The translations under genes and the position numbers were made by a program. A DNA stretch of 64,000 nucleotides from Flaccisagitta enflata (taxonomy: Eukaryota), in assembly GCA_965153355.1 (NCBI GenBank), contig OZ231126.1, positions 34,286,001 to 34,350,000 on the forward strand, given 5' to 3'. The notes below the pieces were generated by a model. The model was not told the origin of the DNA. It did not search any database and saw nothing but the letters and a program-made list of their open reading frames with translations. How positions within the stretch are numbered: the stretch's first letter is position 1; every line of letters begins with the position of its first letter. Below are positions 27,736 through 50,744 of this stretch, piece by piece.

Positions 27736-29920
27736 CTGTTTTTTTTTCTTTTTTTTTCATTTTTCACCTTTTTCTCTCCGGTTTTCTGTCATTTTCTATC
27801 TTGTCTTTTTTAGGTCTTTTTTTTCTCAATTCCTTTGTTTCTTTGTAGTTCTGTTTCTTTGTTTTCTTTTATCTTTTTTTTCTCGTTTCTTTTTATACTT
27901 CCCTCATTTCTTTTTCTCCCACTTACTTTGAGAGAAAAAAAACCAAGTGTCTCAGGGTGGGGTGTTTCATATCAGGGCTCTGGTCTCCGAGTGGGCTGGC
28001 CGAAATTTTGTAGTTGTGGTATGGTTAGGTGAAGCCCCCGGGCACCATAGATGGCTTCCCAAGTGCCCCCACAAGTAACTCGGTTGCCAGATAGGTGGCC
28101 AAAATGGCCAAAAATGGCCCAAAATGACCAAAATCCTTCAAAATTCCAAAATTTGGTTTATTTGTCACAAAAAATCCCAATCATTGATCCAGTTCACTCA
28201 GTTATAATGTATAGACATGGGTTTGGCCAAAAAACGGCAAGTCGCTGCAATTGGGGGCGTGCAAGGACCTCAAAATGGCTTAAAAAAGGCCTTAAAATGA
28301 CCCATCTTACACAGTATCAAAAATTAATAAAAGAATAATGAAATTTTTTCTTCCAAACCTTAAAATATCCAAGGATATAGCCTCAGTGAAGTGTAACAGA
28401 GTTGAAACAGCAAAAAAATATGGCCCTGAGTGTTGTATCAGCCTAAAAACAGGCCTTAAATAGCCAAAATTGGCCCAAAACGACCAAAATGCTTCAAAAT
28501 TCAAAAATTTGGGTTATTTTTCATGAAAAATCTTAATCATTGATCCAGTCCACTCAGTTATAATGTATAATTATGGGTTTGGCAAAAAAATGGCCAGTGG
28601 CTACAATTGGGGGCTTTCAAGAGACCCAAAATGACCAAAAAAGGCCCTAAAATGACCCATATTACGCTATGGCAAAAATTAAGGAAAAAAACGAAATTTT
28701 TTCTTATAAACCTAAAAATATCCTAAAATGTAGCCTCAGTGAAGTCTAACAGAGTAGAAACAGCAAAAAAATATGGCCCTGAGCATCGAATCAGCCTAAA
28801 AACAGGCCTATATTGGCCAAAATTGGCCCAAAATGATCAAAATGTTTCAAAATTCAAAAATTTGGTGTATCTTTCACAAAAAATCCCAATCATTGACCCA
28901 AACTACTCGGTTACAATGTATAGACATGGGTTTGGCCAAGAAATGGTTGGTGGCTACAATTGAGGGCTTGCAAGGGACCCAAAATCAAAATGTCCAAAAA
29001 GGGCCTTAAAATGACCTATATTACGCTATGTCAAAAATTCTGTCTTCCAAACCTTAAAATATCCCAGGATATAGAATGTAGCCTCAGTGAAGTGAAACTG
29101 AGTAGAAACAGCAAAAAAATATAGCCCTGAGCGTTGTATCAGCCTAAAAACAGGCCTTGAATAGCCATAATTGGCCTAAAACGACCAAAATGCTTTAAAA
29201 TTCAGAATTTTTCATTGATTTTTTATGAAAAATCCCAACCATTGATCCAGTTCACTCAGTTATAATGTAGACATGGGTTTGGCCAAAAAACGGCAAGTGG
29301 CTGCAATTGGGGGCGTGCAAGGACCTCAAAACAGCTTATGAAAGGAATTAAAATGACCCATCTCACACTATACAAAAAATAAATGAAAAGTAATGAAATT
29401 TTTTTTTTTCCAAACCTTAAAAAATCCGAGGATATAGCCTAAGTGAAGTGTAACAGAGTTGAAAGAGCAAAAAAACATGGCCCTGAGCGTTGTATCAGCC
29501 TAAAAACAGGCCTCAAATAGCCAAAATTGGCCCTAAATGACCAAAATGCTTCAAAATTCAAAAAATTTTGTTTATCTTTTATGAATAATCCCAAATATTA
29601 ATCCAAATCACTCAGTTATAATGTATAGACATGGGTTTGGCCAAAAAATGGTCAGTGGCTACAATTGAGGGCTTGCAAGGGACCCAAAATGGCCAAAAAC
29701 GGCCTTAAAATCACCCATATTACACTATGTCAAAAATATCCCAGGATATAGCCTCAGTGAAGTGTAACTGAGTAGAAACAGCAAAAAAATACGGCCCAGA
29801 GCATTGCATCAGCCTAAAAACAGGCCTTAAATAGCCAAAATTGGCCCAAAATGACCAAAATGCTTTAAAATTTGGTTTTAAGGCATTAGCCTAAGTTGCG
29901 GCGTCGGCATTTTCACCGTG

Positions 29921-31674: not shown

Positions 31675-33406
31675 AAAAAGTGACCCAGGATCCTTAGCAG
31701 CCCCAGATGGCCCCAGATGACATTCACTAGCAGTTTTTCAGCCAAGTAAACATCCATGCACTACAACTGAATAAATCAGTTGGAAAGATTGGACTCTTTT
31801 ACAGAAATACAGATTAGATTCTTTTACAGAAATACACAATTTTTGTTCAATTTTGAAGCATTTTTGTCATTTTGGGGCATGCTCAGGGCCATATTATTTT
31901 GCTGTTTCTACTCAGTTACACCTTTCTGAGGCTACAGTTTAGGATATTTTACAGTTTAGAGGACAAAATTTCATTATTTTTCCTTAATTTTTGACATAGT
32001 GTAATATGGGTCATTTTAAGGCCGTTTTTGGCCATTTTGGGTCCCTTGCAAGCCCTCAATTGTAGCCACTGACCATTTTTTGGCCAAACCCATGTTTATA
32101 CATTATAAATGAGTGATTTGGATCAATATTTGGGATTTTTCATGAAAAAGAAACTAAAATTTTGAATTTTAAAGCATTTTGATCATTTTGGACCAGTTTT
32201 GGCTATTTAAGGCCTGTTTTTAAGCTGATACAACGCTCAGGGCTATATTTTTTTGCTGTTTCTACACATTTCCACTTCACTGAGGCTTCATTCTATATCC
32301 TGGGATTTTTTAAGGTTTGGAAGACAGAATTTCATTACTTTTCATTAATTTTTGACATAGCGTAATATAGGTCATTTTAAGGCCTTTTTTGGCCATTTTG
32401 GGTCCCTTGCAAGCCCTCCATTGTAGCCACTGACCATTTTTTGGCCAAACCCATGTCTATACATTATAACCAAGTGATTTGGATCAATGATTTGGATCAA
32501 TGATTTGGATTTTTTGTGAAAGATACACCAAATTTTTGAATTTTGAAACATTTTGGTCATTATGGGCCAATTTTGGCCAGTATAGGCCTGTTTTTGGGCT
32601 GATTCAATGCTCAGGGCCATATCTTTTTGCTGTTTCTACTCTGCTAGACTTCACTGAGGCTCTATTCTAGGCTATTTTAAGGTTTAGAAGAAAAAATTTC
32701 ATTATTTTTCATTAATTTTTAACATAGCAGAATATGGGTCATTTTAAGGCAATTTTTGGTCATTTTGGGTCCCTTGCAAGCCCCCAATTTTAGCCACTGG
32801 CCATTTTTTCACCAAACCTATAACTATACATTATAACTGAGTGGACTGGATCAATGATTGGGATTTTTCACGAAAAAATAACCCAAATTTTTGAATTTTG
32901 AAGCATTTTGGTCGTTTTGGGCCAATTTTGGCTATTTAAGGCCTGTTTTTAGGCTGATACAACATTATTTTTTTATTAATTTTTGATATAGTGTAAGATG
33001 GGTCATTTTAAGGCCTTTTTTAAGCCGTTTTGAGGTCCTTGCACGCCCCCAATTGCAGCGACTTGCCGTTTTGTGGCCACACCCATGTCTATACATTATA
33101 ACTGAGTGAACTGGATCAATGATTAGGATTTTTTGTGAAAAATAAACCAAATTTTTGAATTTTGAAGGATTTTGGTCATTTGGGGCCATTTTTGGCCATT
33201 TTCGCCACCTATGCAGCGACCGAGTTACTCGTGGGGGCACTTGGGAAGCCATCTATGGTGCCCGGGGGCTTCACCTAACTATACCACAACTACAAAATTT
33301 CGGCCAGCCCACTCGGAGACCATAGCCCTGATTTGAAACACCCCAGTCTCAGGGCTGCAAGTGTGAAGGCCATCGCTCCCGCTTGACGGACGAGAGAGAG
33401 AAAGAG

Positions 33407-34320: not shown

Positions 34321-34354
34321 GTGTGTGTGTCCGTATGTGTGTGTATGTGTGTGG

Positions 34355-34775
34355 AGAAAGCGGGGTTGTGTAACATACATTGGAAAATACAAGGCTGTGT
34401 GACAGGTGTGTGATGGGTCCGGATTAAACACCAGTGAGAGCTCCAAAGGCTCTCATCCTTTATTAAAGTAGGGTTGAGTAGTAATGTTGTCCAACTTTCA
34501 TACATTGGAACAAACTAGGTGGTGTGATATACATCAAAGAATTCAGGGATGTGTGACATGTGCAACAATTCATCCTACATACATTGTAGAAAAAATGGGT
34601 GAAGTGACATACATCAGAGAATTCTGGACTGTGTGACATACATTGGAAAAACTGGGTGGTGTGACATTCATCGGAGAATTCTGGGCTGTGTGACATACAT
34701 TAGAGAAAACTTGGTGGTGTGACACACATCAAAGAATTTTGGGCTGTGTGACGTACATCGACGAAAAATGGGTGG
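34355..34775 (+). repeat. Satellite of alternating ~29-bp subunits (left part)
   Basis: gtgtgacatacatcggagaattctgggct / gtgtgacatacattggagaaaactgggtg; continues after the retrotransposon. Confidence 0.9.
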
Positions 34776-35686
34776 TATAAAGTACGCCCACGAGTTTCAA
34801 CTGGCACTGTCTATGAGCGTCTATCTGACTGACGACTTGTGGTGAAAGAAAGTTGGCCGATTGGAAAATAGGAAGGCGATCGTCTCGTTTATTCCATAAA
34901 AATTTCAACAACTGAAGAGAGGGGGAAAAATGAAAGGGAAAGTGGGCGTTAATTGTGATCAGCAAACGCAAAAGATAACATGAAATCGAGATAGGACACA
35001 ATAAAGGACAGAAACAGCACATGACAACATGTTCATCTTCTTCAGAGCCCATGCCACCTGATAATACCTGCCCCTGCCCCGGCCCATCCCATTAAATTCA
35101 TCCATATCATCCCTATAGCAAGCTGATCGGACTAGCGATAAAAACCATACTAAAATCCGGCGATAAAGATGCAAAAGGGCAAAAGACAAAAATAACAGAC
35201 CGGAAGACAAGATAAAAACAACGTTAATAAAAGCAGAAACACGTCTATAAAACTTACTTTTAGGCCCACTTTCGTTGGTTTCAACCCACAGTCTGTCGAT
35301 GTCAAATTAACGTTAATTGTCCGTTCATTAGTTTATCTGCAATAAAAAGATGAGAGATTATTGAAATTAGTGAATTCCAAGGGCGCATTCAAACGATCAT
35401 AAAAATCAATCAATCACTTTAAGAAGCGATGCCATAATTAAATAAAATCAATCAATCCAAAAATTGGATGATACGAAAGACGAGTTACGTATATTTGCCT
35501 ACGTAGTAAAAACAAATGGCACAAAATCAAGGCGCAACCATATGGTTACCCATCTAGCGTTCAATATAAAAAATGGCAAGAAACAAAAGACACGGGCATC
35601 GAATAGTAGAAAGAAAAAGCCAAAAGCACGCAAAAGAGACAGAAGGCACACACACCTAAGAGACGGACAGACATACATTTCTAACA
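34776..35686 (-). repeat. 3' LTR (911 bp)
   Basis: Direct repeat of 47061-47976 with only a few substitutions and small indels visible by eye. Confidence 0.95.
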
Positions 35687-35701: not shown

Positions 35702-36487
35702 GGAATTTCACGAATTTCAAAAATCCGACACCTAGTTTCCAGTCGGGGAAACCCTACTAAAAAACGATACTACCTTCCTTAAAAATTTTACATAGACACA
35801 ACCCCCGCCCCCTCCCCCGTCCCGCCTCTTACATCCCCACCTAACTATCAACAGATCGCGACTGCCCGAATGATGATTCCCGTCCGGAAAGGATCCACCA
35901 CCAGCAAATTTGCAACGATCAATGACGCGGATGGAGGCAGGCGGCGACGAAGGTTGAGGCGCCCGTTCTGAAAAAGTTAAAGGGAAGGGGGGGGGAAAGG
36001 GGAACGGGCCTAGGAGCACTCCAAGCCTGGGATTTGACTTGAGAGTGGAAAAAGATAAGTGGGGGCATACTACTAAAACATGTCATACGAAAGTATTCGT
36101 AATAATGACTAAAAAGACCATGTCTAAAACAAACACAACAAAAATATACATGTTCCAAAGAACCAAACAAAACAAGACAAAATTAAATAAATTACTAACT
36201 ATATAATAAAAACGAATCTGTTAAATGAAAGAAAAATTAGTAAGCATCATGGAACGACCACATCACCTGCGCCTTCTCCATTACAGAGACGAGCGGGTCA
36301 TTCCGGCTCCAACATCTCGTCAACTCGTGGGTGAAAGGCGATGAGTGATGTCGTCGACGGCGACCGCATCGAAAGGCGCAGGTGGTGCAACCGTCTGAGA
36401 GTGAATCCTCCCCGAAGGGAAGGAAAAGAAAGAGAAAGAACAGGGGCAGATTGATTAGTAAAGTTCTTATCGTACACAGATTCAAAT

Positions 36488-38863
36488 TTACAACAAAAAC
36501 TCAACCTCAACCCTTCCCAAACCATGATACTTACGCGGGCGTTTTTCGCCAGGCCCCGGGGCGGACGTCATTCCCACGCCCCGGGTAGCGCCCCCGACTT
36601 GGCCGGCCTGTCCATCGATGGGATGAGGATGTGATGGTGGAATACGATCCTCAGCGAATGGCGGCGCTCTCCACGCCATGTTGCAAATTGGTAGTTAAAT
36701 TGAACAGCAACTGGGCGTGGCACCAATCAGCGTTTAGCTGGCGGTCTGATTTTTCCAAGGCCTGGTTCGATTTTCTTATTCCCAGGCTTGGGAGCGTCTT
36801 TGCGACAGGATCTGCTGACCGACTTTTTCTGCTGGAGAAGACGCAGGAGGTGGAGATGCTGCATCGCAATTCGGCGCAATCGAAATTCGGACGTACAGCG
36901 GACGCAGTTTTAAAGTCGACGGCCATAGCCGCCTTTGCGCGTTCCACCGCTTCCTCTTTCTTCTTAGCCTTCATCGCACAGGCCTGCTTCTCCTTTTCAA
37001 GCTGCTTCTCCAGTTCCACGACTCGCTTGTTGCCTTTGACCACCTCATTGTCCGCAGCCATTGCTGCTCGACGAGCATCGTCTCTCTCCTGTTGGATGTT
37101 GCGACGAATCCTCTCGTCTAAGACTTGACGAGCCGCTTCAACTCGTTGACGCGGCGGAAGCGACGCGAAGAAGTCTTTTGGAAGCCTGGATGCTAAATTC
37201 TTCACCACCCCCAATGGAGCATTTGAGGTCAGCGAAGAGGCTTCTCGTAGCAATGACTCGGCGATGTGGTGTCCATGCGCAGGATCAAAGGCTGGATCCG
37301 ACGGGGGAGGCGGGTTCTGCACTTGCTGCAGACCTTGGGCAGACTCGGTTTGCTGACGAGGCGCTACCAGCTTTAACAGATGCTGAAGCACCGCCAACTA
37401 GTTCGCTTCCTACCGCGGCTTTTGATGGCTGCGAGTGAAAGGAAGACGCTCCCGTCTGCTGACCAGAGACTTGAGGTTTAACAGCGGACGCCGAAGCACC
37501 GCAAGTAGAACCTCCCTTGGTTGCTGCTTTGTGCTTTTTCCCAGCTCTCTTGGTCTTCTTCCCCTTTGCTGCCGCTGCCCCAGGCGCCTGATCCAGCTTC
37601 TGGGTTGCTGCCAACGTTGCCGTCGACGAACCACTTGAAGCTTCTCCTTGGCCTTTGGGCGTTACTGCTGCAGGGGGCGCGCCTGGAGGCGCTTGAAGGG
37701 GGCCTTTGCTTTTGGAATTTGGCCCTTTTTGTTGACTCTGCACATTGCGCGTTTGTGGAGTCTTTCCCCGACGTGATCTCTTCGATTGTTGTGAGGGAGT
37801 GACGTCACGAGGACCCTGTTGCTGCTGATTTGGGGGATGAACCAATCCAGGGCGCGATTGACGACTTCCTGATGCTGTAGAGTGAATTGCCGCTGATGTA
37901 GCTGCGGCTGCGTCGAGCACGAATACCGCTGGTGGAGTTGCGGAAGCGTCGACAGCAGTTGCACCAGGAGGCTTCGGAGCCGCATTCTTCCTCTTCGTCG
38001 CTTGGACCATGCGACGAACCTCCTTATCATGCTCCCTCCTTCTTTTGTTGCTTTGGATTTTGCGCTCCAGAGTCTCCGAGCCCAGCTCTGTTTGATTAGC
38101 CGATGAGCGCATGAGAGTTTGTTTGTTGCAGCATACTGAAAGTTTTTCAAACTCTTTGAAGAGGAGAGATACTTCGACGTCCGGACTGATGATACGATAC
38201 CACCGCGCCTGCATCCGTTGGTGTTTCTCTTCCGGCGTCGCAGTGTCCACTTCGGAGTCAATGCCTTTCTCCACCACCTCCCATTCACCAACACCTCCTC
38301 CTCTATTTCCATCCCCTCCTCCTCCACTCTTGCTCCATCATTGACCAATCTCTCTCTCTCTTCGCCCCCGCTGCGTTGACGTGCAGCTGCAGACGCTTGA
38401 TCACGAGACGCTGGGCGACCGAAATCAAGGCAGAATTGGCGAGGCGATGGGGGCAAATCCGATGATGATGACGCCGCCGCGGAAGTGGTGGATAAGTCCG
38501 TCGGCGGCCGATTGATCGCAATCCGCCTCGAACCTCCATCTTTGATGACCACCAATGGAAGGCGGCAGCGGGATCAACGGCGTTGGATGGCTGTTGACGA
38601 TTTACCAACGCATCATCTTGTTGACGCTTTTTATTCGCCATTTTTGCGTCGGCCCGAGCGAAGGTCGCCATTGAAGGCTGCCAGCGCGACAGCCTCCTCC
38701 TCCGCCCCGAACGACGTCGTGGATGCAGATCCCTCTCGAGTCGAGCCGTCGTTGAAGAGTCGATGAAGATCCAGGACCCGTACGACGTCGACACGTCGGC
38801 TTCAGCCTCGAGACGCGCTGCTGACGGGACATCTTGACTCCGACGAGCGACTTCAAGATGCAA
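36488..38863 (-). CDS. Extra ORF region downstream of pol (unknown product, broken into overlapping frames)
   Basis: Chain of overlapping minus-strand ORFs (38303-38863, 37662-38555, 37285-38277, 36651-37397, 36488-36679); GC-rich block with a low-complexity Ala/Ser/Gln/Lys segment and a coiled-coil-like segment. Confidence 0.6.
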
Positions 38864-39183
38864 ACTGACTTCGTAGATGGAATGACGTCGTCAGCGGAAG
38901 CTTTGAAATGTTCGTGTTGAAGAACTGATAAAGGTAAGAACGGATTTGGCACAATAATATGTACATATAGACAGGGCGAATGAATCAGTGTTTTGATGTG
39001 TAAATGGAAATGGACAACATAATTGACAAGAGGAAAGATGAAAGCATGGATAATCAGAACCAAATATGAATAATAACAACTCTTTGTAAATATAACAAGT
39101 CAGAGTATCAATCACTCATATCTATAGTTACTAATGGACAGGCCCATGCGCCTTTTTCTCTCTCTCTCAAAACTTAGCGTTTT

Positions 39184-39777
39184 TTATGAGTCCAATTCCA
39201 GCCGCACGAGCTTCGTGCGGTCTTTCGTCACGATCTTTCCATCTTGGCGCCGGATGTGAGCCCTCCGGACATGGGCTGACGAACCCTCGACGCCCATGAC
39301 ACGTCCTAAGCTCCAATTGTGACGAGGCAGCGTTTCGTCCATGACGATGACCATGTCATCCACCGCAAAGTCTTTCTCAGATCTCGACCATTTGCTTCGC
39401 GCATGAAGAAGCGACAAATATTCGACCCTCCACGATTTCCAAAATGCATCCACACGCGATTGCGCACGCCTCCATTGAATCTTCGCGGAGTCGGCGTCAG
39501 AATTGACGCCTTGTTGCACCAGATCTAGAGGGGCATGGCCGGATGTTGATGGATTGAGGATATGATTCGGTGTAAGGGCCTCAGAGTCATTTGGATCATC
39601 GCTGAGCGCTGTTAGAGGACGGCGATTGAGAATTCCTTCAACTTCGACGACGGCAGTGTTGAAGGCGTCGACGTGGAGGATGGCGCCAGTTGAGATGGAA
39701 GCAAGATGGCGCTTAAAGAGAGCAACGATTCTCTCACACCCTCCATAGTGGGGTGTTCTCGGCGTGATAAATCCCAC
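39184..39777 (-). CDS. pol: Integrase C-terminal part (catalytic E region plus DUF5641-like tail)
   Basis: PRTPHYGG-ERIV, EGILNRRPL, LTPNHIL, FWKSWRVEYL, PRHNWSLGRV; frameshifted from the upstream ORF. Confidence 0.92.
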   Translation of the reverse strand: MGFITPRTPHYGGCERIVALFKRHLASISTGAILHVDAFNTAVVEVEGILNRRPLTALSDDPNDSEALTPNHILNPSTSGHAPLDLVQQGVNSDADSAKIQWRRAQSRVDAFWKSWRVEYLSLLHARSKWSRSEKDFAVDDMVIVMDETLPRHNWSLGRVMGVEGSSAHVRRAHIRRQDGKIVTKDRTKLVRLELDS

Positions 39778-39798
39778 CGAAGGCCGCGCCGCTGCAGT

Positions 39799-42711
39799 TC
39801 AGGGAGTTGACGAGCGGTTCCAAGCTTCCATTTCCTTCTTGAGGATGTTGTTGGCGCCGACTAGATTCGTCCCACAATCTGATGTGAAACGGCGGATTCC
39901 TGGGCGCCTTGCTGCAAAGCGGATGATTGCATTTACCATCGCATCGGCTGACATGTTGAAGAGCAATTCCACATGGACGGCGCGTGACACGAAACAGGTG
40001 AACACTGCGATCCACACCTTATGATCAGCACGCCCGTTCATTTTTACCATGAAATGCCCCATGACGTCCAATCCAGTCTCTGCAAAGACAGGCGCCGGAT
40101 TGACGCGATTTGATGGAAGATTGGCCATTTGCTGATTTGCGTTCTTTTTAAAGTTCTTCTGGCATCTAAAGCACGTGTTGACGACGCTCTTGACGGCCTG
40201 AAGACCTTTTGTAATCCACACAAATTGGCGTAATTGGCACAATGTATGCTTTGCACCCGCGTGAAAATCATTATGATGATAATGGCGAATTAATGATTTC
40301 ACATTCTCGTCTTTTGGCGGCAGGATAAAGGGAAATTTAGCGTCGTGAGAGATGTCGGCATTTTCCAATCGACTGCCGACGCGAAGGATGCCGTCGTCGT
40401 CGACGAAAGGGTTCAACTTCCGCATCTCCTTGTTCTTTATGATAAAGTCACGACGGCTTTCTGGCTTGAAGACTTTTCCCAATTCCAATTGTTCGAAGAC
40501 GTCAGAATAATGCTGCCGCTGCATTGACTTGACGAGCCGTTTGCGCGCCTCCTCCACGACGTCTTGCGTCACTTCCGGTTTTGGAAGGAGATCTTTTGTT
40601 GCTCGTGTCTTCGCCCTTGGATACGCTCTCCACCTTTTGACTGCGATGAGAACCATGCCGATAATCCGCAATTTCTGCATCCATTTTCCCCGAGAAGCGG
40701 CTGCAAGAAGTATCGCGTCAGCCACTTGTTTCTTTTCACTCTCAGCCGCATACAGAGCGGCGACCTGTGCAGAAATAGGGCACGTCGCGATGTTCGTCTT
40801 TGGCCATTGATCTTCGGGAAGACGCAAAAATGCAGGGCCTTGATGGAATTGACGCCATTTTTCGGCTTCATGGGCCTGGATGCCTCTGCTACAGTGGTCC
40901 GCCGGGTTGTTTGACGAGTCAACCCAGCGCCACTGTTGAGGATCAGACCCACTATGGATCTTGGAGAGACGATTGGCGAAGAATACAGGCCTCGGTTTTG
41001 CCGGATTGTAAATCATCTTCAGTGCAGATTCAGAATCGGACCAAAATCTGACGACGAGATTGTCCAAGTTGATGGTCCTTCCGACGAAGCGTTTGAGCTG
41101 CACTGCTTTTTCTGCGGATACAATCTCGACGCGTGGAACGCTGTTGTGATGAGAGGCACGTTTTGGATTGAGAGGAATGACGTGAGATTTGGATGCGATG
41201 AATGAAATGTGAACATCTCCATCTCGGTTGACTTGACGTCGATATGCAACTGCTCCATATCCGCCTTTTGGAGCTGCATCGCAAAATAACTCGATTGTTA
41301 CTTCCGCAATGTCGCTATTGTCGACGCCGCCATTCCACCAGCGTTCAATTCGATATTGTTGTAGAAGAGGCCAAGATGAAGTATAGCGGAAGAAAGATTC
41401 CTCAACGCTCTCTTCCAAGGGCGAATCCCATCCCACTTCCTGTGGACGACAGAGTTGAAGATGACGTCTGCCGATGTATGCGCTTGGACTCCAAAAACCC
41501 AATGGATCGTAAAGTTTCGCTTGCATAGAGACCAATTGACGAGGTGTTTTTGCTCTAAGAGTTTTGAATTCTTCGTCGCAGATGAAAATAAAGACGTCTT
41601 CCGCCGGAAGCCATGAGACGCCCAACACCTTCGTCGGCGCATCATCTTGCTTATCTGAAATGGGGATTGGCACATTTGGATCTCCATCCATCAATTGCCG
41701 CGCATTGCTCTTCCACTTCACAAGATCCATCCCGCCTTCCGCCATCGCCGCCACTGAATCCACCTTTAGTTGCAGTGCTTCGTCGACCGAATCCCCACCC
41801 CCACTTCCGTCGTCGACGTAAAAACCATAGCGAATAAGATCGTAGACGTTGTAGGGGTATTTGGGCCGGATTACTTCAGCATGCTTTCTGACGGTGAAAG
41901 ATGTGACGAATGAGCTGGATTGGCTGCCGAAGACGTGTGATAAAAACAGATTCAAAATTGCTTCTCGAAGAGTGCGGTCCTTGAACCAAAAGAATCTGAA
42001 TAAATCAGCGTCGTCAGGATGGACGCGGATTTGGTGGAAAAACGCCTTTATGTCACACATAAAGGCGATTTTCCACTGACGAAAACGCATGAGGATGTCC
42101 ATCAGGCTATTCATCAAATTTGGGCCTCCGACGAGCAAATCATTGAGTGAGATCCCGTCGGTCGCCGCACGCGCATCGTGACATACGCGCGTTTTTCCGC
42201 GCAATTCGACAATATGAAGCGGCAAGTACCAGCGCGGCTTCTCAATGCCGTCGTCGTCGTCGACGTTGTCAATCTCAATCGCCACTCCCGTCTCGTAAAA
42301 CTTCTCGATTTCACGGAAGACTCTTTCTTTGAAGGCTGGATCACGCTTGAAGCGAAAACGTTGGTTACCGAGTCGCTTCATCGCAGTCGGTCGTGATTTC
42401 ACTCTTCTCAGAATCTCCATGATTTTTTCATGATGAAATTTCCATGTGACAGGAGCAAAGTACTTTTTCACAATTGGGCAAAAATATATCTTTTCCTCTA
42501 ACGTTTTGCACGCTCTGACATTTTCAAGGGAATCACCCATCTCCTCTTGCGAGACGATTGATGATGCAAAGTCATGGTAGAAGATGCGGTCGATGTTGCT
42601 GTTGAGGACGATTGTCGAGGATGCGATCGATGTTATCGTTGAGGACGCGGTCATCCGTCGCGATAGCGTTGATCGACGCAATATCTCGTCCTCTTTTGCC
42701 CGTTTTTCCAC
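39799..42711 (-). CDS. pol: Reverse transcriptase, RNase H (Pao peptidase_A17 type), integrase zinc finger and core
   Basis: CDIKAFFHQI, HVFGSQSS, FYVDD; LFCDA..GYGAVAY, VPRVE, FWSDS, NPADHCSRG; H..H/CFRC; GLDVMG, TSDCGTN. Confidence 0.96.
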   Translation of the reverse strand: MEKRAKEDEILRRSTLSRRMTASSTITSIASSTIVLNSNIDRIFYHDFASSIVSQEEMGDSLENVRACKTLEEKIYFCPIVKKYFAPVTWKFHHEKIMEILRRVKSRPTAMKRLGNQRFRFKRDPAFKERVFREIEKFYETGVAIEIDNVDDDDGIEKPRWYLPLHIVELRGKTRVCHDARAATDGISLNDLLVGGPNLMNSLMDILMRFRQWKIAFMCDIKAFFHQIRVHPDDADLFRFFWFKDRTLREAILNLFLSHVFGSQSSSFVTSFTVRKHAEVIRPKYPYNVYDLIRYGFYVDDGSGGGDSVDEALQLKVDSVAAMAEGGMDLVKWKSNARQLMDGDPNVPIPISDKQDDAPTKVLGVSWLPAEDVFIFICDEEFKTLRAKTPRQLVSMQAKLYDPLGFWSPSAYIGRRHLQLCRPQEVGWDSPLEESVEESFFRYTSSWPLLQQYRIERWWNGGVDNSDIAEVTIELFCDAAPKGGYGAVAYRRQVNRDGDVHISFIASKSHVIPLNPKRASHHNSVPRVEIVSAEKAVQLKRFVGRTINLDNLVVRFWSDSESALKMIYNPAKPRPVFFANRLSKIHSGSDPQQWRWVDSSNNPADHCSRGIQAHEAEKWRQFHQGPAFLRLPEDQWPKTNIATCPISAQVAALYAAESEKKQVADAILLAAASRGKWMQKLRIIGMVLIAVKRWRAYPRAKTRATKDLLPKPEVTQDVVEEARKRLVKSMQRQHYSDVFEQLELGKVFKPESRRDFIIKNKEMRKLNPFVDDDGILRVGSRLENADISHDAKFPFILPPKDENVKSLIRHYHHNDFHAGAKHTLCQLRQFVWITKGLQAVKSVVNTCFRCQKNFKKNANQQMANLPSNRVNPAPVFAETGLDVMGHFMVKMNGRADHKVWIAVFTCFVSRAVHVELLFNMSADAMVNAIIRFAARRPGIRRFTSDCGTNLVGANNILKKEMEAWNRSSTP

Positions 42712-43231
42712 ATACAGTCCAACCGAATAGACATCTGAAGCAAGTCAAAGATCCTGAAGGCCCTCGACGGATTTCTTGAGCGACGGCGGCATCCGCATGC
42801 GCCGCTCCGATGATCATCATCACACCGCCTTCAGCTTCTGGAAATTTTACGCCTTCGATGTGAGGTTGGTCAGATAGGTCGCGGAGAAAAGGAGGAATAT
42901 CGCGTTCACTCGTTAACAAATCACCCACCAATGCGTCGCTGATGTCGACGACGTATTCCTCGTCGACCGATTGCATGGTGAATGATGCGATGAAACGATC
43001 CTCAACAACATGACTTCCCACAGTAATCACCGTCATTTGCACTGTTTTTGTTGGAATCAGAAGACTGCGAATGACGCTGGTACTGATCACGTCGCGATCA
43101 GCGCCTGAGTCGATCATAGCATATATCGTCCTCTGCGCACCCGAAGAATTGTTTAATATAGTCACTGGAACGATCGGACGGACAACGTCGTCGAATGAAG
43201 AGACGGACCGCGACGTTGCCGTCGCCGCCAG
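42572..43231 (-). CDS. pol: Aspartic protease, in frame with gag after a single TGA
   Basis: RPIVPV...YAMIDSGADRDVI, MIIGAAH, CLFGWTVCG. Confidence 0.9.
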   Translation of the reverse strand: MAATATSRSVSSFDDVVRPIVPVTILNNSSGAQRTIYAMIDSGADRDVISTSVIRSLLIPTKTVQMTVITVGSHVVEDRFIASFTMQSVDEEYVVDISDALVGDLLTSERDIPPFLRDLSDQPHIEGVKFPEAEGGVMMIIGAAHADAAVAQEIRRGPSGSLTCFRCLFGWTVCGKTGKRGRDIASINAIATDDRVLNDNIDRILDNRPQQQHRPHLLP

Positions 43232-46207
43232 TCATGCCGTGGCGTTAGGAGAGATGATTTCCGTTGGATTGGCTGCCTCCGTCGTCGACGGAGCTGTTGG
43301 TGCTGCTGCAGCCGCATCCTCTGACTTTTTGAAGGGAGCCAGCGGTACTTTATTTCCCTGCTTGTTTTCTCCTTTCTTCTCTTCCTTTTCTTCTTTCTTG
43401 TAGGTGCGCCCGTGGAGAATCGTCGCGTGCCGCTTCTTGCAGGTTTGGCAAGTCGGTCTGTTCACGCATCCTTTGGCGTTGTGTCCTGGCGTGAGACAGT
43501 GGAAGCAAAGACGACGAGACATGATCTTTTGAACTCTCGCGTCCACTTCCAACTCTAATAGTTGATGACAGTTTTCCGTTTGATGCATTCCACTGCAGAC
43601 GTTGCAGCGGTCCGTCGACTGCGTCTTTTGCTTGCCATTGGTCAAAGCATCTTCATATGATGATGGCGCTTCTTTCTCTGTAGTTGCGACTGCTGCCACT
43701 GATGCTGTTTTGCAGCTTGCGCCTTTGTTGCGCTGAATCACCGCCCATGTCTCGATCATATTGACCAAGTTGTCGAATGAAAACAATTGTCCATTTAGGG
43801 CTGCTTCATGTTGCTTTTCCCAGAATTTATCTGCAAGATGAGGGACCCTCTTGTTGAGAATCTCCTGCAGCAGCTCGTCACGATAGCATTGTTGCACTTC
43901 TCCACAGGTCCTCGCAATCTTCTTTGCCTTTTGCAACCTTGCAGACAAATTGAAATGCCTTGCATGGTCGGCCGACTGGATCTTCGCCTCCGCGACGATT
44001 TCGTTGAACAGCGCCGCAATGTTGCAGCGCCTTGCCATAAAGACGACGTCCATTTTTGCGAAGGCGTCGTCAATCTCTCCTCTTGCTGTCGCTTCAGTTG
44101 CATCAATCGTCGCAGTTTCTATGATCTCTTTTGCCGGACCAGCAAACCACTTAGGCAATTCCAATAAGATGTCCATTTGCGTCAAGCCTTCATGCTTCTC
44201 AGCATCTTTAAACTTCCTCTTCCACATCATAAAGTCGGTGGATGAAAGCTCCTGCAGAGGCTTCTCAGGTCTTGCTCTCTCCAACGCTTTGAGGCCGACC
44301 TCCCTTGCTCGCATGAGATCATTGTACGTCGCTCTTTCCAAAAACCTGTCCAGCGCCGGATTGTTGGGCATCTGAACGTGGACTTCCGGTTGACGGGCTA
44401 CTTGATGATGCTCCACTTGATGATACGCTGAGGGTTGTTGGACGAAGGCGTATTGACCCCCGACTTTCACCGGAGATCTCTTTTTGGTGGTTTTAACGCT
44501 CCACCCCACTTCCTCTTGCTGATTCACTTGTTGTTGACGATCATCTTGATGGAATCGGGGAGCATCAAAATCTTGGCGGACGTACTGTCGCTGTTGTTGT
44601 TCCTCTTTTCGTTGTTTTTCTTCTGCTCTCGCTGCGGCAAGGTCAAAGTCTCTCTGCTGAATCTGCATCTTCAAACTATCCACTTCTTGCTGCAAACGTT
44701 GATTCTGCTGGATGACTTCCGCTTGAGGCGTTACTAGAGGCGCTTGCGCTACTTTCGGCGCCTTCGGCTGCAATCCATTCGTTGTCTTCTTGGGAGCGAC
44801 TTTTCTTCTCTCTTTATCTTGCAGCTGTTGTGCCAACTTCGCGTCAGCGGCCTCCTGCTTCTGCCTCCTGCGCATCGCCTCCGTTGCATCACCTCCGCTT
44901 CCGGCTGTGTTGAAGACCTTTTCCTCTTGATGGGGAAGACCAGTCTCCCTTCTAGCAGAGCCAATCTGCTTCTCGAAGATCACTTCCGGTGCGGTAGGGA
45001 GAATCGTTGCTGCTGGGGCTTGATGATGCTGATCTTGATGCTGTTGCTGTTGTTGAAGCCGTTGCTGCTGCCACTGTTGATGTTGAAGCTGCTGTTGCTG
45101 GTCAGGACGCTGTTGCTGTTCATTCTGCTGCTGCAGTTGACGCTGACGTTGTCCTTGCTGCTGCTGCTGCTCCCACTGTTGCTGCTGCTGCATCGGCTGC
45201 TTGACGGACGTTTCCACTGACTGCACATGACGTTGCTGTGTGTTCGAATTGAAGTTTCTGAAGATAGATCGACGGTCTTTTGGCGGATGCTGCGGCTGCT
45301 GCTGTTCCAGCTCAGACAGTTGCCTAAGCTTCACATCACGCTGCTCTAAAGCCCCACCAATGCCGCCGTCGTTCAGGCTATTCCAGTGCTTTCGTTGCAT
45401 TTCTGCCGCATTGTTGAATATTCCCGCTCTTCTATCTTCATCTCGTTGCTGCTGCTGGAGAAAGTTACACATTCTGTCGTATAACTCTTTGTCTTCTTGT
45501 GATGAGCTTCGCTGTTGGAATCCCAATGGCACCGCGATCGGCGCCTTTGGAGCTGTTGCTGCACCACCACCTTCACCTTCAGCCATCATGCGCAGCCGTT
45601 GATCTGCAAGGCGTTGCTGTCTCTCTTCTTCTGTCTCCTCACTGACGTTCATGCTTTCGACAAGATGGTTGTTTGAAGCTGGAGGATCCACCACCACCGC
45701 TGGGATTGCGGCGGAAGGTTGCTGTTGCTGCTGCTGTTGCTGTTGCGTACTTTCTCCTGCATCGTTTTGCCGCTGTTGTTGTTGTTCGTGCGGCTGCATT
45801 GCCGTTTGTCGCAGCTCTTGTTGTTGTTGCTGTTGCTGTTGTTGCTGCTGTTGATCGTGTTGTTGTTGTTGTTGAGCGCCGGCTGCAGGATCTTGTTGAC
45901 AAAATTGTTGGAGTTGCTGCAACTGCTGCTGCTGCAACAGCTCTTGCTGCTGCCGTTGAGCCGTCGTTTGCTGCTGCTCCTGTGGTCGGTGGAGTTGACG
46001 TTGCTGTTGGAGTTGCTGCTGCATCTGCAATTGATGCTGCTGCTGTTGCTCCTGCTGCTGTCGCTGCTCCTCCTCCCGTTGTTGCTGCTGCATATCGTCA
46101 ATCAGCCGACGGCCTTGTCGCATTTCCTCCTCCAACTGCCTGCCCCATCTGTCTCTCTCAGCACTCCTGTTGACGAAGCGTCGCCTCGCCCTCTCCTGCG
46201 GCGTCAA
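43232..46207 (-). CDS. gag: Gag: polyQ-rich N-terminal half, capsid-like region, three zinc knuckles
   Basis: CNVCSGMHQTENC, CFHCLTPGHNAKGC, CQTCKKRHATILH; FMMWKRKF capsid-region motif. Confidence 0.92.
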   Translation of the reverse strand: MTPQERARRRFVNRSAERDRWGRQLEEEMRQGRRLIDDMQQQQREEEQRQQQEQQQQHQLQMQQQLQQQRQLHRPQEQQQTTAQRQQQELLQQQQLQQLQQFCQQDPAAGAQQQQQHDQQQQQQQQQQQQELRQTAMQPHEQQQQRQNDAGESTQQQQQQQQQPSAAIPAVVVDPPASNNHLVESMNVSEETEEERQQRLADQRLRMMAEGEGGGAATAPKAPIAVPLGFQQRSSSQEDKELYDRMCNFLQQQQRDEDRRAGIFNNAAEMQRKHWNSLNDGGIGGALEQRDVKLRQLSELEQQQPQHPPKDRRSIFRNFNSNTQQRHVQSVETSVKQPMQQQQQWEQQQQQGQRQRQLQQQNEQQQRPDQQQQLQHQQWQQQRLQQQQQHQDQHHQAPAATILPTAPEVIFEKQIGSARRETGLPHQEEKVFNTAGSGGDATEAMRRRQKQEAADAKLAQQLQDKERRKVAPKKTTNGLQPKAPKVAQAPLVTPQAEVIQQNQRLQQEVDSLKMQIQQRDFDLAAARAEEKQRKEEQQQRQYVRQDFDAPRFHQDDRQQQVNQQEEVGWSVKTTKKRSPVKVGGQYAFVQQPSAYHQVEHHQVARQPEVHVQMPNNPALDRFLERATYNDLMRAREVGLKALERARPEKPLQELSSTDFMMWKRKFKDAEKHEGLTQMDILLELPKWFAGPAKEIIETATIDATEATARGEIDDAFAKMDVVFMARRCNIAALFNEIVAEAKIQSADHARHFNLSARLQKAKKIARTCGEVQQCYRDELLQEILNKRVPHLADKFWEKQHEAALNGQLFSFDNLVNMIETWAVIQRNKGASCKTASVAAVATTEKEAPSSYEDALTNGKQKTQSTDRCNVCSGMHQTENCHQLLELEVDARVQKIMSRRLCFHCLTPGHNAKGCVNRPTCQTCKKRHATILHGRTYKKEEKEEKKGENKQGNKVPLAPFKKSEDAAAAAPTAPSTTEAANPTEIISPNATA

Positions 46208-46997
46208 TCCGTTGATGATCCCGCGACCTCTTGCAAGAGCGTCGCGTCGTCGAGATCCGCAAGCATGTCGTCAGCTTGCTCCATCGGAGACGCACGCGCA
46301 GGTTCGATTTCGAGACCAAATCTGATACCCATTGATTGGCGGCATCTCCTCTTTGGATCGGCAGATTTAAAAATTGGCCGCCAGTTGGAGATTGCGCACC
46401 ATGTCGTGGGACCGGAAGTGGTAAATACTCGGATCCGTCGGGGTTTGGCGACGACGTTCGCATCCTTGGAGTCGGAGCGCCGGTAACATTGTCACGGGCG
46501 GCGTGGGTGTCAGTTGGGAGACTATTCCATGAGAATTCGTTGACGGGCCTTTTGCAATTCCCAATGTCATTATGCACTGCGTTCACGATGTCGGCGTTGG
46601 AAGGAAAACCCTCTGGATAGTTTTCACGATCAAAGAAACGCATGGAGTCCCACTCGCGCCGGATTCGACGCAAAGAAGACGCCGCGAATCGAAGAGGGTC
46701 GCCGGGCATCGAGTCGAGCGCCATTTGTCTTGCATACGATATAAAGTCGTAGACCATGTCCCGAAGGCCGTGTCGAGCGCCATCCGATTCACAGGCGGCG
46801 TCGTCGAAGTCGTTCGTTCCTTCGGTGCAAGTAGAAACGGCGTCGAAAAGGCGCCGGCATCCTTCAATTTCCGCAGTGATGTCGTTCCTCATTGCGCGCA
46901 AACGATTCGACCTCGGACACTGATTCAAACCGAAGTGAGATACACGAGATGACGTTGAAGCAGTCGAGACGGTGTCGTCGTTACGCGCGGCTGCCAT
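46158..46997 (-). CDS. Probable N-terminal segment of Gag (frameshifted from the main gag ORF)
   Basis: First ATG (ACAATGG) 64 nt after the 5' LTR; 279-aa open frame overlapping the gag ORF. Confidence 0.65.
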   Translation of the reverse strand: MAAARNDDTVSTASTSSRVSHFGLNQCPRSNRLRAMRNDITAEIEGCRRLFDAVSTCTEGTNDFDDAACESDGARHGLRDMVYDFISYARQMALDSMPGDPLRFAASSLRRIRREWDSMRFFDRENYPEGFPSNADIVNAVHNDIGNCKRPVNEFSWNSLPTDTHAARDNVTGAPTPRMRTSSPNPDGSEYLPLPVPRHGAQSPTGGQFLNLPIQRGDAANQWVSDLVSKSNLRVRLRWSKLTTCLRISTTRRSCKRSRDHQRIDAAGEGEATLRQQEC

Positions 46998-47060: not shown

Positions 47061-47976
47061 TATAAAATTACGCCCACGAGTTTCAACTGGCACTGTCTAT
47101 GAGCGTCTATCTGACTGACGACTTGTGGTGAAAGAAAGTTGGCCGATTGGAAAATAGGAAGGCGATCGTCTCGTTTATTCCATAAAAATTTCAACAACTG
47201 AAGAGAGGGGGAAAAATGAAAGGGAAAGTGGGCGTTAATTGTGATCAGCAAACGCAAAAGATAACATGAAATCGAGATAGGACACAATAAAGGACAGAAA
47301 CAGCACATGACAACATGTTCATCTTCTTCAGAGCCCATGCCACCTGATAATACCTGCCCCTGCCCCGGCCCATCCCATTAAATTCATCCATATCATCCCT
47401 ATAGCAAGCTGATCGGACAAGCGATAAAAACCATACTAAAATCCGGCGATAAAAATGCAAAAGGGCAAAAGACAAAAATAACAGACCGGAAGACAAGATA
47501 AAAACAACGTTAATAAAAGCAGAAACACGTCTATAAAACTTACTTTTAGGCCCACTTTCGTTGGTTTCAACCCACAGTCTGTCGATGTCAAATTAACGTT
47601 AATTGTCCGTTCATTAGTTTATCTGCAATAAAAAGATGAGAGATTATTGAAATTAGTGAATTCCAAGGGCGCATTCAAACGATCATAAAAATCAATCAAT
47701 CACTTTAAGAAGCGATGCCATAATTAAATAAAATCAATCAATCCAAAAATTGGATGATACGAAAGACGAGTTACGTATATTTGCCTACGTAGTAAAAACA
47801 AATGGCACAAAATCAAGGCGCAACCATATGGTTACCCATCTAGCGTTCAATATAAAAAATGGCAAGAAACAAAAGACACGGGCATCGAATAGTAGAGAAA
47901 GAGAAAAAGCCAAAAGCACGCAAAAGAGACAGAAGGCACACACACCTAAGAGACGGACAGACATACATTTCTAACA
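47061..47976 (-). repeat. 5' LTR (916 bp)
   Basis: TGTTAG start at 47976, TTTATA end at 47061; direct repeat of 34776-35686. Confidence 0.95.
47174..47201 (-). promoter_or_regulatory. Predicted initiator (TCAGTT, +1 at 47199) and AATAAA poly(A) signal defining R
   Basis: TCAGTT at 47201-47196 after a pyrimidine tract; AATAAA at 47179-47174; both are present in the 3' LTR. Confidence 0.6.
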
Positions 47977-49985
47977 GGTGGTGTGACATAAATCGGAGAA
48001 TTCTGGGCTGTGTGACATACATCAGAGAAAACTGGGTAGTGTGACATACCTCAGAGAATTCCGGGCTGTGTGACATACATCGGAGAAAACTGGGTGGTGT
48101 GACATACATCGGAGAATTCTGGGTTCTGTGACATACATCAGAGAAAATTGGGTGGTGTGACATACATCAGAGAATTCTGGGCTGTGTGATATACATTGAA
48201 GAAACTGGGTGGTGTGACATACATCAGAGAATTCCGGGCTGTGTGACATACATCGGAGAAACTGGGTGGTGTGACATACATTGAAGAATTCTGGGATGTG
48301 TGACATATATCGGACAAAACTGGGTGGTGTGACATACATCAGAGAATTCTGGGCTGTTTGACATACATTGGAGAAAACTGGATGGTGTGACATACATCGG
48401 AGAAATCTGGGCTGTGTGACATACATTGGAGAAAACTGGGCGGTGTGACATATATTGAAGAATTCTGGGCTGTGTGACATACATTGGAGAATTTTGGGCT
48501 GTATGACATACATTGGAGAAAACTGGGTGGTGTGACATACATCGGAGAATTCTGGGTTATGTGACATACATTGGAGAAAACTGGGTGGTGTGACATACAT
48601 CGGAGAATTTTTGGCTGTCGGACCTGCAGCGAAGAAAACTGGGTGGTGTGACATACATCGGAGAATTCTGGGCTGTGTGACATACATTGGAGAAAACTGG
48701 GTGGCGTGACATACATTGGAGAATTCTAGGCTGTGTGACATACAATGGAGAAAATTTGGTGGTGTGACGTACATTGGAGAATTCTAGGCTGTGTGACATA
48801 CATTGGAGAAAACTGGGTGGTGTGACATACATTGGAGAATTCTGGGCTGTATGACATACACTGGAGAAAACTGGGGGGTGTGACAGATATTGGAAAATTC
48901 AGGGCTGTGTAACATACATTATAGAAAACTTGGTGGTGTGACATACATCAGAGAATTCTGGGATGTGTGACATGTGCAACAATTCATCCTACATACATTG
49001 TAGAAAAAATGGGTGAAGTGACATACATCAGAGAATTCTGGACTGTGTGACATACATTGGAAAAACTGGGTGGTGTGACATACATCGGAGAATTATGGGC
49101 TGTGTGACGTACATTGGAAAAAACTAGGTGGTGTGACAGACATTGGAGATAACTGGGTGGTGTGACATACATCGGAGAATTCTGGGCTGTGTGACATACA
49201 TTAGAGAAAACTTGGTGGTGTGACACACATCAAAGAATTTTGGGCTGTGTGACCTACATCAAAGAAAACTGGGTGGTGTGACATAAATCGGAGAATTCTG
49301 GGCTGTGTGACATACATCAGAGAAAACTGGGTGGTGTGACATACGTCAGAGAATTCCGGGCTGTGTGACATACATCGGAGAAAACTGGGTGGTGTGACAT
49401 ACATCGGAGAATTCTGGGTTCTGTGACATACAAAAGAGAAAATTGGGTGGTGTGACATACATCGGAGAATTCTGGGCTGTGTGATATACTTTGAAGAAAC
49501 TGGGTGGTGTGACATACATCAGAGAATTTCGGGCTGTGTGACATACATTGGAGAAACTGGGTGGTGTGACATATGAATTTTGGTTTAAAAGTGATAATCA
49601 TTGCCCTAACTACTTTTGGTAAGCAGTTTGCTTTTGGGTTAGATTGAGAAGGAATGTTTTTCGGATTGTTTTATGGAAAACTAGGAGTGGTGCGCGTAGT
49701 AACTAGTCAGTGAGGGTTCACAAGGCCCTCTTCCATTTATTTCAGTTTGGGTATAGTGAGGGATATTGTTCCACTTTTCATACATCGAAGAATTCTGGCA
49801 TGTGTGACATATATTGGACAAAACTGGGTGGTGTGACATACATCAGAGAATTCTGGGCTGTTTGACATACATTGGAGAAAACTGGATGGTGTGACATACA
49901 TAGGAGAAATCTGGGCTGTGTGACATACATTGGAGAAAACTGGGCGGTGTGATATATATTGGAGAATTCTGGGCTGTGTGACATA
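47977..49985 (+). repeat. Satellite of alternating ~29-bp subunits (right part)
   Basis: Same units as 34355-34775; interrupted by unrelated sequence at ~49575-49778. Confidence 0.95.
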
Positions 49986-50130
49986 TAATGGGGAGAAAGA
50001 AAAAACTAAAAAAAAACAAAAGCAATTTTACGATTTTTTTCCGGTCGGCGAGAGCCGCCTTTACTGGTAGGAAAAGAAAAAATAGAATTGAATAAGTAGA
50101 AGAAGAATTAGAAAAGGAAGAACAAAGAAG

Positions 50131-50744
50131 AACAAGTGACGCAAGGTCACAATATCGTTGCGGACGGGTGGGTAGGGGCAATCAAACCCCATCCCCATCC
50201 CAAACCCTACAAACATCCACAAAAAGCATCCAAAATGTTCATTTCCCAACTTTTTGACTCATGCTCACAGACCAACGGACCAAAGGAGTTAAGTGACGGA
50301 CCGACGGACGGACAAAGCCTCATATAAGAGTTGCATGTCCACAACTAAAAAAGATGAATAAGAAGAGGTGGTAAAGAAGAAGATAAAAAGAAGAAGGAAA
50401 ACAAGAAAGTGGGGAAAAATGATAAGGACAAGAAGAATAGAAAGTGGGAGAAATCAGCAATAAAGACGTTTGGGAAGAACAAGTGACGCGGGGTCACAAT
50501 ATTGATGCGGACGGGTGGGCAGGGGCAGCCAACCCTTATCCACACCCAACGTCCCACCCAACCCCCCTTCCAACACAGACGCATGCTTGTTTTCCCACTT
50601 TTCGACTCGTGCTCACGGACCAACGGACGGTCCGAGGGACCAGTGGTTGGACCAATGGACGGACCGACTGACCGATGGTTGGACCAACGGACGGACCGAC
50701 CGACGGACCGACAAAGCCTCTAATAGAGTTGCGTGTCCGCAACT
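50131..50744 (+). mobile_element. Two DINE-1/HINE-like family A elements (50131-50346, 50478-50744)
   Basis: aacaagtgacgc..ggtcacaatat start, (ggac)n, end agagttgcgtgtccgcaact-aaaaa hairpin. Confidence 0.7.

Follow-up and report, generated by a model that had tools for sequence, protein, structure and literature searches.

The window analysed here is a stretch of 64,000 nucleotides (nt) from Flaccisagitta enflata (contig OZ231126.1 of assembly GCA_965153355.1, positions 34,286,001 to 34,350,000; the coordinates below are those of the window). On its minus strand, from 47976 to 34776, lies a 13.2-kb long terminal repeat (LTR) retrotransposon of the BEL/Pao group (Belpaoviridae) with the following organization: a 5' LTR of 916 nt with TG...TA ends (47061..47976); a gag region (43232..46997); a pol gene (39184..43231); a third gene, here termed open reading frame 3 (ORF3; 36734..38832, with its ATG at 38832 and its stop at 36734); and a 3' LTR (34776..35686). 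ORF3 sits in the env position; where sister copies are open, it encodes 703 amino acids (aa). The gene is genuine and only its window copy is broken, and its product is very probably a nuclear accessory protein other than Env.

Between the end of pol at 39184 and the start of the 3' LTR at 35686 are the 3.5 kb given in a preliminary description of this DNA. That description had also noted a GC-rich block of overlapping frames that might join into 700-800 aa, and both the block and the size estimate are borne out: GC content is 0.51-0.59 in 11 of the 12 200-nt bins from 36401 to 38800 (0.47 in the other one) but no more than 0.34-0.35 for the 36001 and 39001 bins; the overlapping minus-strand frames measure 165, 195, 303, 350 and 248 aa; and naturally open sister copies give 703 aa from the first ATG. 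In the genome searched for sister and related copies (G000), natural copies hold ORF3 uninterrupted: nine of 19 sister loci have a single frame that stays open over 753-797 codons and, counted from its first ATG, encodes 702-703 aa. Among the fetched loci, open frames span 702-711 aa in 18 members of family A and 690-707 aa in eight members of family B, the latter being a set of G000 elements whose pol is 77-81% identical and whose homologous ORF begins about 350 nt after pol. No internal stop is present in 57 of the 63 best-scoring G000 matches (chosen by score). Compared with an open sister, the window copy has 10 frame-shifting gaps, near 38800-38550, 38300, 37350 and 36900-36800, of which six lie in homopolymer runs. 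The 19 comparisons yield 87 such gaps, 54 of them a single base long: 45 fall in the 2.1 kb of ORF3, and 0.8 kb of pol accounts for the other 42. ORF3 is therefore not broken more often than pol, and assembly errors may explain some of the breaks.

Selection was measured as the ratio of nonsynonymous to synonymous substitution rates (dN/dS), using pairwise Nei-Gojobori estimates on natural open copies with bootstrap 95% intervals; restriction to open copies introduces a bias against stops, not against amino-acid changes. The dN/dS of ORF3 is 0.23-0.34 in all seven within-family pairs (95% intervals 0.16-0.47, excluding 1), well under the value near 1 expected of a spurious frame, and that of the last 330 codons of pol is 0.02-0.06 in the five of these pairs having open pol. 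Between families the corresponding values are 0.43-0.48 for ORF3 (at dS over 1.2, hence saturated) and 0.07-0.08 for pol, and selection on ORF3 extends to dS 0.2 within families and over 1.2 between them. Other frames give 0.9-1.5, save the antisense frame that shares third positions (0.35, with about 20 stops). The constraint is unevenly spread: in family A dN/dS is 0.06 over residues 1-60, 0.22 over 171-290 (the central module described below), 0.13 over 511-655 (the C-terminal head and coil) and 0.3-0.9 in the linkers, and in family B it is 0.10 in the central module, 0.28 at the N-terminus and 0.25 in the C-terminal head and helix. ORF3 is thus under purifying selection, and we regard its status as a real selected gene as practically certain.

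Searches with ORF3 recovered six proteins at 86-98% identity and 18 cluster representatives with identity down to 39%, the latter out of 1.84 billion representatives: no cluster member read carries a name, and no host-gene homologue is present among the 18 hits. Relatives were met in assemblies of marine metagenomes and in metatranscriptomes. An ORF3 match is found in 18 of 20 fetched G000 stretches, 15 with pol upstream and three in truncated pieces; family C is represented in G000 by such a truncated piece without pol. In all, five ORF3 lineages can be distinguished, which are 36-49% identical and have 69 invariant columns in common. No relative outside the BEL/Pao clade was found in the searches run, and a scan of JGI metagenomes returned 213 pattern matches, none of which was confirmed. 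ORF3 founds a new protein family.

The ORF3 protein is predicted to be soluble, basic and mostly disordered, with short conserved motifs and a coiled-coil end. In the AlphaFold2 model 465 of the 703 residues have a predicted local distance difference test score (pLDDT) below 50; helices are placed at residues 42-78, 201-245 (with pLDDT 49-60 over 211-260) and 253-285, and a confident head followed by a long helix spans about 520-647. The N-terminal 60 residues are acidic (net charge -5) and contain a DLxxL motif, of which D21, L22 and L25 are invariant in four lineages. The central conserved module (38032..38211), delineated by columns invariant in the five lineages, comprises an RxQARWxY motif, the segment LFKEFEKLSV (38163-38134), a Cys-Cys pair and an Arg-rich helix. 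LFKEFEKLSV and its variants conform to a class 1a/1b nuclear export signal, the sole such pattern that every one of the five lineages has (column shuffles, which ignore helix periodicity, give p 0.03-0.05). Further on, pattern conservation points to a candidate regulated nuclear localisation signal (NLS), with an RPxxVHPP motif and a Thr-Pro site followed by a basic run (37768..37854), in which R329, P330, V333, H334, P335, P336, T347 and P348 are invariant in the five lineages. The C-terminal part is a predicted three-helix head leading into an 85-residue helix of the coiled-coil type (36890..37290; domain mean pLDDT 85), and a DPxVD motif and a basic tail are also conserved. By pattern, the protein would hence combine an NLS or Arg-rich motif with a leucine-type export signal, as would be expected of an export factor with a Rev- or CERV-like role. 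Several of these features had been picked out in the preliminary description: the QARWYRII motif is indeed found at 38211-38188, and the basic runs SNKRRRE and KGKKTKRAGKKHK at 38052-38032 and 37566-37528. Its coiled coil is likewise present (37013-36987), whereas the cysteines described behind the coil derive from a shifted frame of the window copy; open copies have six Cys in total and a Pro/Ala/Ser-rich tail. A calcineurin-type docking motif near residue 92 was dropped, as by eye it is not conserved in family B.

The features of an Env are missing from this protein. No signal peptide was found in the proteins with a native start by a simple window (the hydropathy of nine residues peaks at 0.2-0.68 within residues 1-33), the N-terminus being non-hydrophobic in all three; no membrane helix, C-terminal ones included, was found in six of six proteins (top 19-residue hydropathy 0.75-1.32, with an Ala run as the maximum); and no F- or gB-like cysteine-bridged ectodomain was found, there being 2-7 Cys and ordered parts that are all helical. 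Pfam gave nothing informative for the ORF3 frames of the window, the ORF3 protein or 20 aligned members (best E 0.02), and a sequence search of the PDB gave no informative match. Foldseek returned nothing at E 0.001 for the ORF3 models against viral and PDB structures; VIA-align returned generic coiled coils only (Z at most 7.1), with the head and central module barely covered; and the best ESM Atlas matches (0.86 and 0.76) were uninformative. Thus, given the lack of a signal peptide, a membrane helix and any informative Pfam, PDB or fold match, ORF3 is not an Env. A derivation from gag was also rejected, since there is no likeness to the gag of the element. The earlier reading as a non-env accessory protein without signal peptide or fusion-glycoprotein pattern is therefore upheld by the open frames, the purifying selection, the hydropathy and the fold comparison; no informative match of ORF3 to a family, fold or host gene emerged in the searches run.

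The conserved ATG, an upstream stop in family B and a conserved splice acceptor suggest that ORF3 is likely made from a subgenomic RNA. In family B an in-frame stop lies eight codons upstream of the ATG, which is therefore the start of ORF3. Ahead of it are a candidate acceptor (AG at 38926-25) and a 92-nt ATG-free leader with two predicted hairpins (38833..38942), families A and B being 73% identical over the leader, with fold z values of -1.6 and -2.7. This acceptor had been described as pyrimidine-rich: its place, 92 nt before the ATG, stands, and its strength is moderate, with a pyrimidine fraction of 0.59-0.73 over the preceding 22 nt. In families A and B a CAG precedes the ATG by 87-96 nt, or by 76 nt in one deleted copy; the stretch from CAG to ATG is free of ATGs except in two family B copies with broken ORF3, and the pattern is unmatched in two family B loci. 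The 5' LTR holds a conserved acceptor (47624-23), a GTAAGT donor (47543) and a second acceptor (47199-98), all three of which are also present in the family B LTR. Just after the pol stop, a conserved non-coding block (39110..39186) is 94% identical between families A and B; it is kept in ORF3-less derivatives, aligns even in a gag-only one, and is a candidate packaging or export signal.

Common to the five lineages behind the ORF3 stop are a GC-rich element, a GTAAGT donor, a TACTAAT branch and more donors and acceptors. The GC-rich element is an 86-nt non-coding segment (36535..36620) that ends at the donor and is 87-88% identical across families A, B and C, whose ORF3 proteins are only about 40% identical. 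It was considered as a ribozyme or known RNA and rejected, with no Rfam match at E 5 and a folding z of +0.4 to +0.9 against shuffles; a possible pseudoknot can be drawn in it by eye. The donor opens a predicted 140-nt intron (36395..36534) with a branch at 36460-54, a pyrimidine tract and a terminal CAG; among the loci with the anchor, the donor is present in 29/29 of family A, 13/14 of family B, 1/1 of family C and 1/1 of family D. A predicted 49-nt intron (36218..36266), a further acceptor (35969-68) and a donor (35832) follow. Two donors, two acceptors and one branch are invariant in the five lineages in the sense orientation and none in antisense, the numbers being small. The downstream exons were rejected as coding: their lengths (128, 130, 129, 132 and 134 nt) and open frames differ between lineages. 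DNA copies retain the predicted introns, in that probes from the 3' region give 363 exact unspliced donor matches in G000 (with a 16-mer) versus none for the joined probe, and no deletion of at least 20 nt is present in the family A loci scanned.

The LTR pairs fall into a 12.3-kb class and shorter classes, and all 10 short elements fetched lack ORF3: eight of 7.6 kb (L119-L126) share one deletion, which runs from ORF3 codon 5 to about 36389 and also removes reverse transcriptase (RT)/RNase H and part of integrase while keeping gag and the protease region, and two of 5.5-6.4 kb (L127-L128) have a divergent gag only. The deletion junction has 72 exact matches in G000, and the LTR pairs of the derivatives are at least 99% identical in six of ten cases, up to 100%. 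An origin of the 7.6-kb derivatives as retrocopies of spliced RNA was rejected, their junctions not being GT-AG. These non-autonomous derivatives keep gag, the LTRs and most splice motifs. Since such ORF3-less elements are mobile, neither ORF3 nor the GC-rich element is required in cis, in keeping with a protein that acts in trans; equally, 36620-36535, being deleted in them, is not a required cis export element, and 39186-39110 and 36390-35690, which they keep, are the remaining candidate cis elements. That ORF3 is needed in trans is suggested by the selection on it; the derivatives by themselves do not show such a need.

The rest of the element conforms to the BEL/Pao type, with LTRs, gag and a pol of the order protease, RT, RNase H and integrase that includes the Pao peptidase A17 and DUF5641. 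The window copy of pol is broken; Pfam detects in it Peptidase_A17 (PF05380, E 1e-28), DUF5641 (PF18701, E 4e-20) and Integrase_H2C2 (PF17921, E 5e-9). The gag region is Gln-rich with a CCHC-type C-terminus and is split into two frames in the window copy (312 and 1012 aa); Pfam gave nothing for these frames, and the putative gag identity rests on position and motifs. Its part at 43232-46270 has very long glutamine tracts, and a Gln/Asn tract is also seen in the ORF3 linker of family B. By definition of the group, the 5' LTR of a BEL/Pao element should be followed by an 18-nt primer site matching tRNA-Arg or tRNA-Gly; in families A and B the sequence there starts with TTTCAAC, not TGG. The segment 47060-46998 reads TTTCAACAATTT in both families and has no TGG-type primer site, gag starting about 60 nt further on. 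Two further LTR features are a G-rich box near 47370 and, near 47117, the initiator-like motif TCAGTC.

The LTRs of the window element are 99.1% identical over 916 nt and are flanked by a 5-bp target duplication, CCACC (34775-71 and 47981-77); four of 19 sister copies have TG...CA rather than TG...TA ends. Of 910 candidate sister copies, the 40 that were scored show 93-100% identity in the region; copies of one subfamily are 97-99% alike, and an 18-mer at the LTR donor has 1202 exact matches in G000: the family of the window element is young and abundant. The window element sits within a 29-bp tandem satellite (34345-34775 and 47977-50200); a similar repeat appears to interrupt pol of one family B copy (L085), and the satellite may itself be mobile. 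Elsewhere in the window, arrays of an approximately 520-bp repeat, direct and inverted and 78-99% alike, occupy 1233-5526 and 12316-15512, and inverted repeats of 390 nt (27951-28340 and 32963-33352, 94% complementary) enclose 4.6 kb whose core, at 30-32 kb, is richer in GC; this unit is probably a DNA transposon.

Our best reading of ORF3 is that of a lineage-specific trans-acting nuclear regulator, which would be comparable in role, not by homology, to Rev and to the CERV protein of the Cer1 element; its more specific casting as a regulator of the export or splicing of element RNA is a tentative proposal, to which we give somewhat less than even weight. The element can be said to have a Rev-type problem and the parts to meet it, because it combines several conserved splice sites, which its genomic RNA would have to leave unused, with a basic nuclear-type protein, an export-like motif and a coil. 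Under the proposed mechanism, several good splice sites in the element RNA would have to stay unused in the genomic RNA, and a subgenomic RNA entering at the acceptor 92 nt before the ATG would furnish the ORF3 message, which, being spliced, would be exported freely. The protein would then enter the nucleus via its basic runs, with the Thr-Pro site as a possible switch, bind element RNA via the Arg/Trp/Cys module, oligomerise via the coil and, through its leucine-type export signal, bring intron-retaining gag-pol/genomic RNA to the cytoplasm, as do Rev and CERV. By extension, and a little more doubtfully still, the clade may represent a complex, intron-rich BEL/Pao element, whose splice sites would lie in the LTR, ahead of ORF3 and in the 3' region, with an independently evolved Rev-like protein that controls it and also serves the non-autonomous derivatives in trans.

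Several observations weigh against this proposal. Rev-type proteins are much shorter than the 700-aa ORF3, and the searches run gave no sequence or fold link of ORF3 to Rev, CERV or an RNA-binding family. A conserved amphipathic helix readily yields an export-like pattern, and the obvious candidate for a response element, 36620-36535, is lost in mobile derivatives and folds no better than shuffles. An exact probe joining the LTR donor to ORF3 found no spliced retrocopy, and in four of the 20 RNA runs listed neither 38925 nor any predicted intron had a joint; these runs tell neither way, the raw-read run amounting to 35 partial reads on a repeat without the element and the contig runs being flat, as from DNA.

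Other roles are less probable to differing degrees. The preliminary description had offered anti-silencing, targeting and spread, and not a regulator of RNA export or splicing, to which the evidence points more. Spread, taken as cell-to-cell membrane fusion, is not supported, ORF3 having no membrane segment, and site targeting finds no support either, as none of 19 flanks lies in the satellite holding the window copy (a 20th locus lacks an LTR end). An anti-silencing or chromatin factor, which we consider unlikely, would likewise be nuclear and act in trans, in this case freeing copies from DNA methylation or small-RNA repression in a role like that of VANC. The fast but constrained evolution of ORF3 (dN/dS 0.3 versus 0.04 for pol), as in conflict genes, would be in keeping with it, as would the hundreds of young copies, the CpG observed/expected ratio of 1.0-1.3 in the element versus 0.58-0.64 in the window flanks, and the dispensability of ORF3 in cis. 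However, no known DNA- or chromatin-binding domain emerged in the searches run, no region has dN/dS above 1 (the highest being 0.92, on 8 and 19 changes), private CpG transitions (0.035 versus 0.028 per site) give no sign of methylation of the copies, and the export-like motif and the 3' splice sites would be left unaccounted for. An activator of LTR transcription with a Tas- or Tat-like role is more improbable again: an acidic N-terminus with DLxxLF would activate, and a basic helix would bind LTR DNA or nascent RNA. The acidity of the N-terminal 60 residues, the most constrained part in family A, and the invariance of D21, L22 and L25 would suit such a function, and foamy-virus Tas occupies the same genomic slot as ORF3; yet no confident DNA-binding fold is predicted over residues 211-260, and the N-terminus is less constrained in family B.

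With a similarly low probability, ORF3 might be a cofactor of particles, trafficking or integration, such as a condensate scaffold or a motor adaptor into the nucleus or germ line. Its extensive disorder, long coiled coil and several basic runs would fit, whereas there is no insertion-site preference among the same 19 flanks (their GC content is 0.30-0.55), no likeness to gag and no membrane segment of the kind reported for sORF2 (bioRxiv 2025.03.14.642691). Finally, it is very improbable, and already largely refuted, that ORF3 is a decayed env or a host fragment that was captured and has stayed open just because the family is young. This explanation draws on the env position, the origin of BEL/Pao env genes from unrelated viral fusogens and the closeness of the copies within subfamilies. 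It is opposed by the missing signal peptide, membrane helix and cysteine scaffold, by selection that persists over the divergence within and between families, by the placement of all G000 relatives after BEL/Pao pol or in truncated pieces, and by the lack of a host-gene homologue.

Rev, Rex and Rec offer the general likeness: an Arg-rich segment, a leucine-type export pattern, an oligomerisation helix (a candidate one in ORF3) and dependence on spliced expression (predicted for ORF3). ORF3 differs in being several times longer, in that its best response-element candidate is dispensable in cis, and in having no homology to them. The closest parallel among retrotransposons is CERV of Caenorhabditis elegans Cer1 which is reported to be needed for the export of unspliced genomic RNA and is a 517-aa product of spliced RNA, partly from an ORF once called env, with a zipper, an NLS, a candidate nuclear export signal (NES), a Cys loop and an essential Ser-Pro site (PMC10309623). 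On that description, the two are alike as accessory proteins of 500-700 aa from an ORF in the env position and from spliced RNA (predicted for ORF3), without homologues outside their lineage and more divergent than Pol, and in the coiled coil, NLS, candidate NES, conserved Cys and Ser/Thr-Pro site. By contrast, in CERV gag exons are joined to the 3' ORF and there are globular domains, M and G, whereas ORF3 has its own ATG, is mostly disordered with a Cys-Cys pair only, lacks gag likeness and a G-domain in its model, and sits in a BEL/Pao element; the comparison with CERV is by description.

Within BEL/Pao, the env-like genes (the F-type of Roo, the Chuviridae-like gB of mosquito elements, and Tas) resemble ORF3 in being a third gene between pol and the 3' LTR, in sense orientation with an upstream acceptor (a candidate one in ORF3), and differ by the signal peptide, membrane anchor, cysteine scaffold and fusogen fold that it lacks. 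The known BEL/Pao third genes are viral fusogens according to the available parts of two reports (PMC13524379, PMC3118150), and the ICTV taxonomic account lists only gag, pol and env for elements of 4.2-10 kb, against 13.2 kb for the window element (PMC8742986). As far as the accessible text of a further study goes, plant gypsy elements carry additional ORFs between pol and the 3' LTR (Grande gene23, Retand), which are likewise orphan accessory genes of nuclear character present in most copies; the nuclear examples differ in being antisense, of plant gypsy origin and driven by their own promoter (PMC7264820). The excerpted MDG1-group study describes sORF1 and sORF2, non-env accessory ORFs of animal LTR elements with low dN/dS, of which sORF1 is nuclear; they are of about 110 aa and lie upstream of gag, and sORF2 acts as a membrane fusogen, a role closed to ORF3 (bioRxiv 2025.03.14.642691). 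Proteins of the sORF2/FAST type have 60-210 aa, a myristoylation motif and one membrane helix, whereas ORF3 has 703 aa, no such helix and no Gly at position 2. The available parts of PMC6431247 and PMC8220671 add nothing specific. A chaetognath study (PMC12460157) was considered as background on trans-splicing and LTR methylation, and no conclusion here draws on it. Non-env accessory genes are thus known in plant gypsy, the MDG1 group and Cer1, and ORF3 is one in BEL/Pao. A non-env third gene in BEL/Pao was not found in the searched literature, in which the slash form of the name is unsearchable and whose scope excludes subscription papers. Cer7 of C. elegans has been reported to carry an extra ORF.

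A conserved non-env third gene with conserved splice signals on its flanks amounts to retrovirus-like regulatory complexity in the little-studied BEL/Pao elements, and it illustrates that position alone is no ground for labelling an ORF in the env slot as env. A mechanism for the export of intron-containing RNA is known for few LTR retrotransposons; here the export question becomes testable, since the family offers copies in the hundreds, five lineages and naturally deleted derivatives by which the needs in cis can be mapped. If the proposal is true, ORF3 would be the first export regulator in Belpaoviridae among the searches run, and a further independent origin of this strategy.
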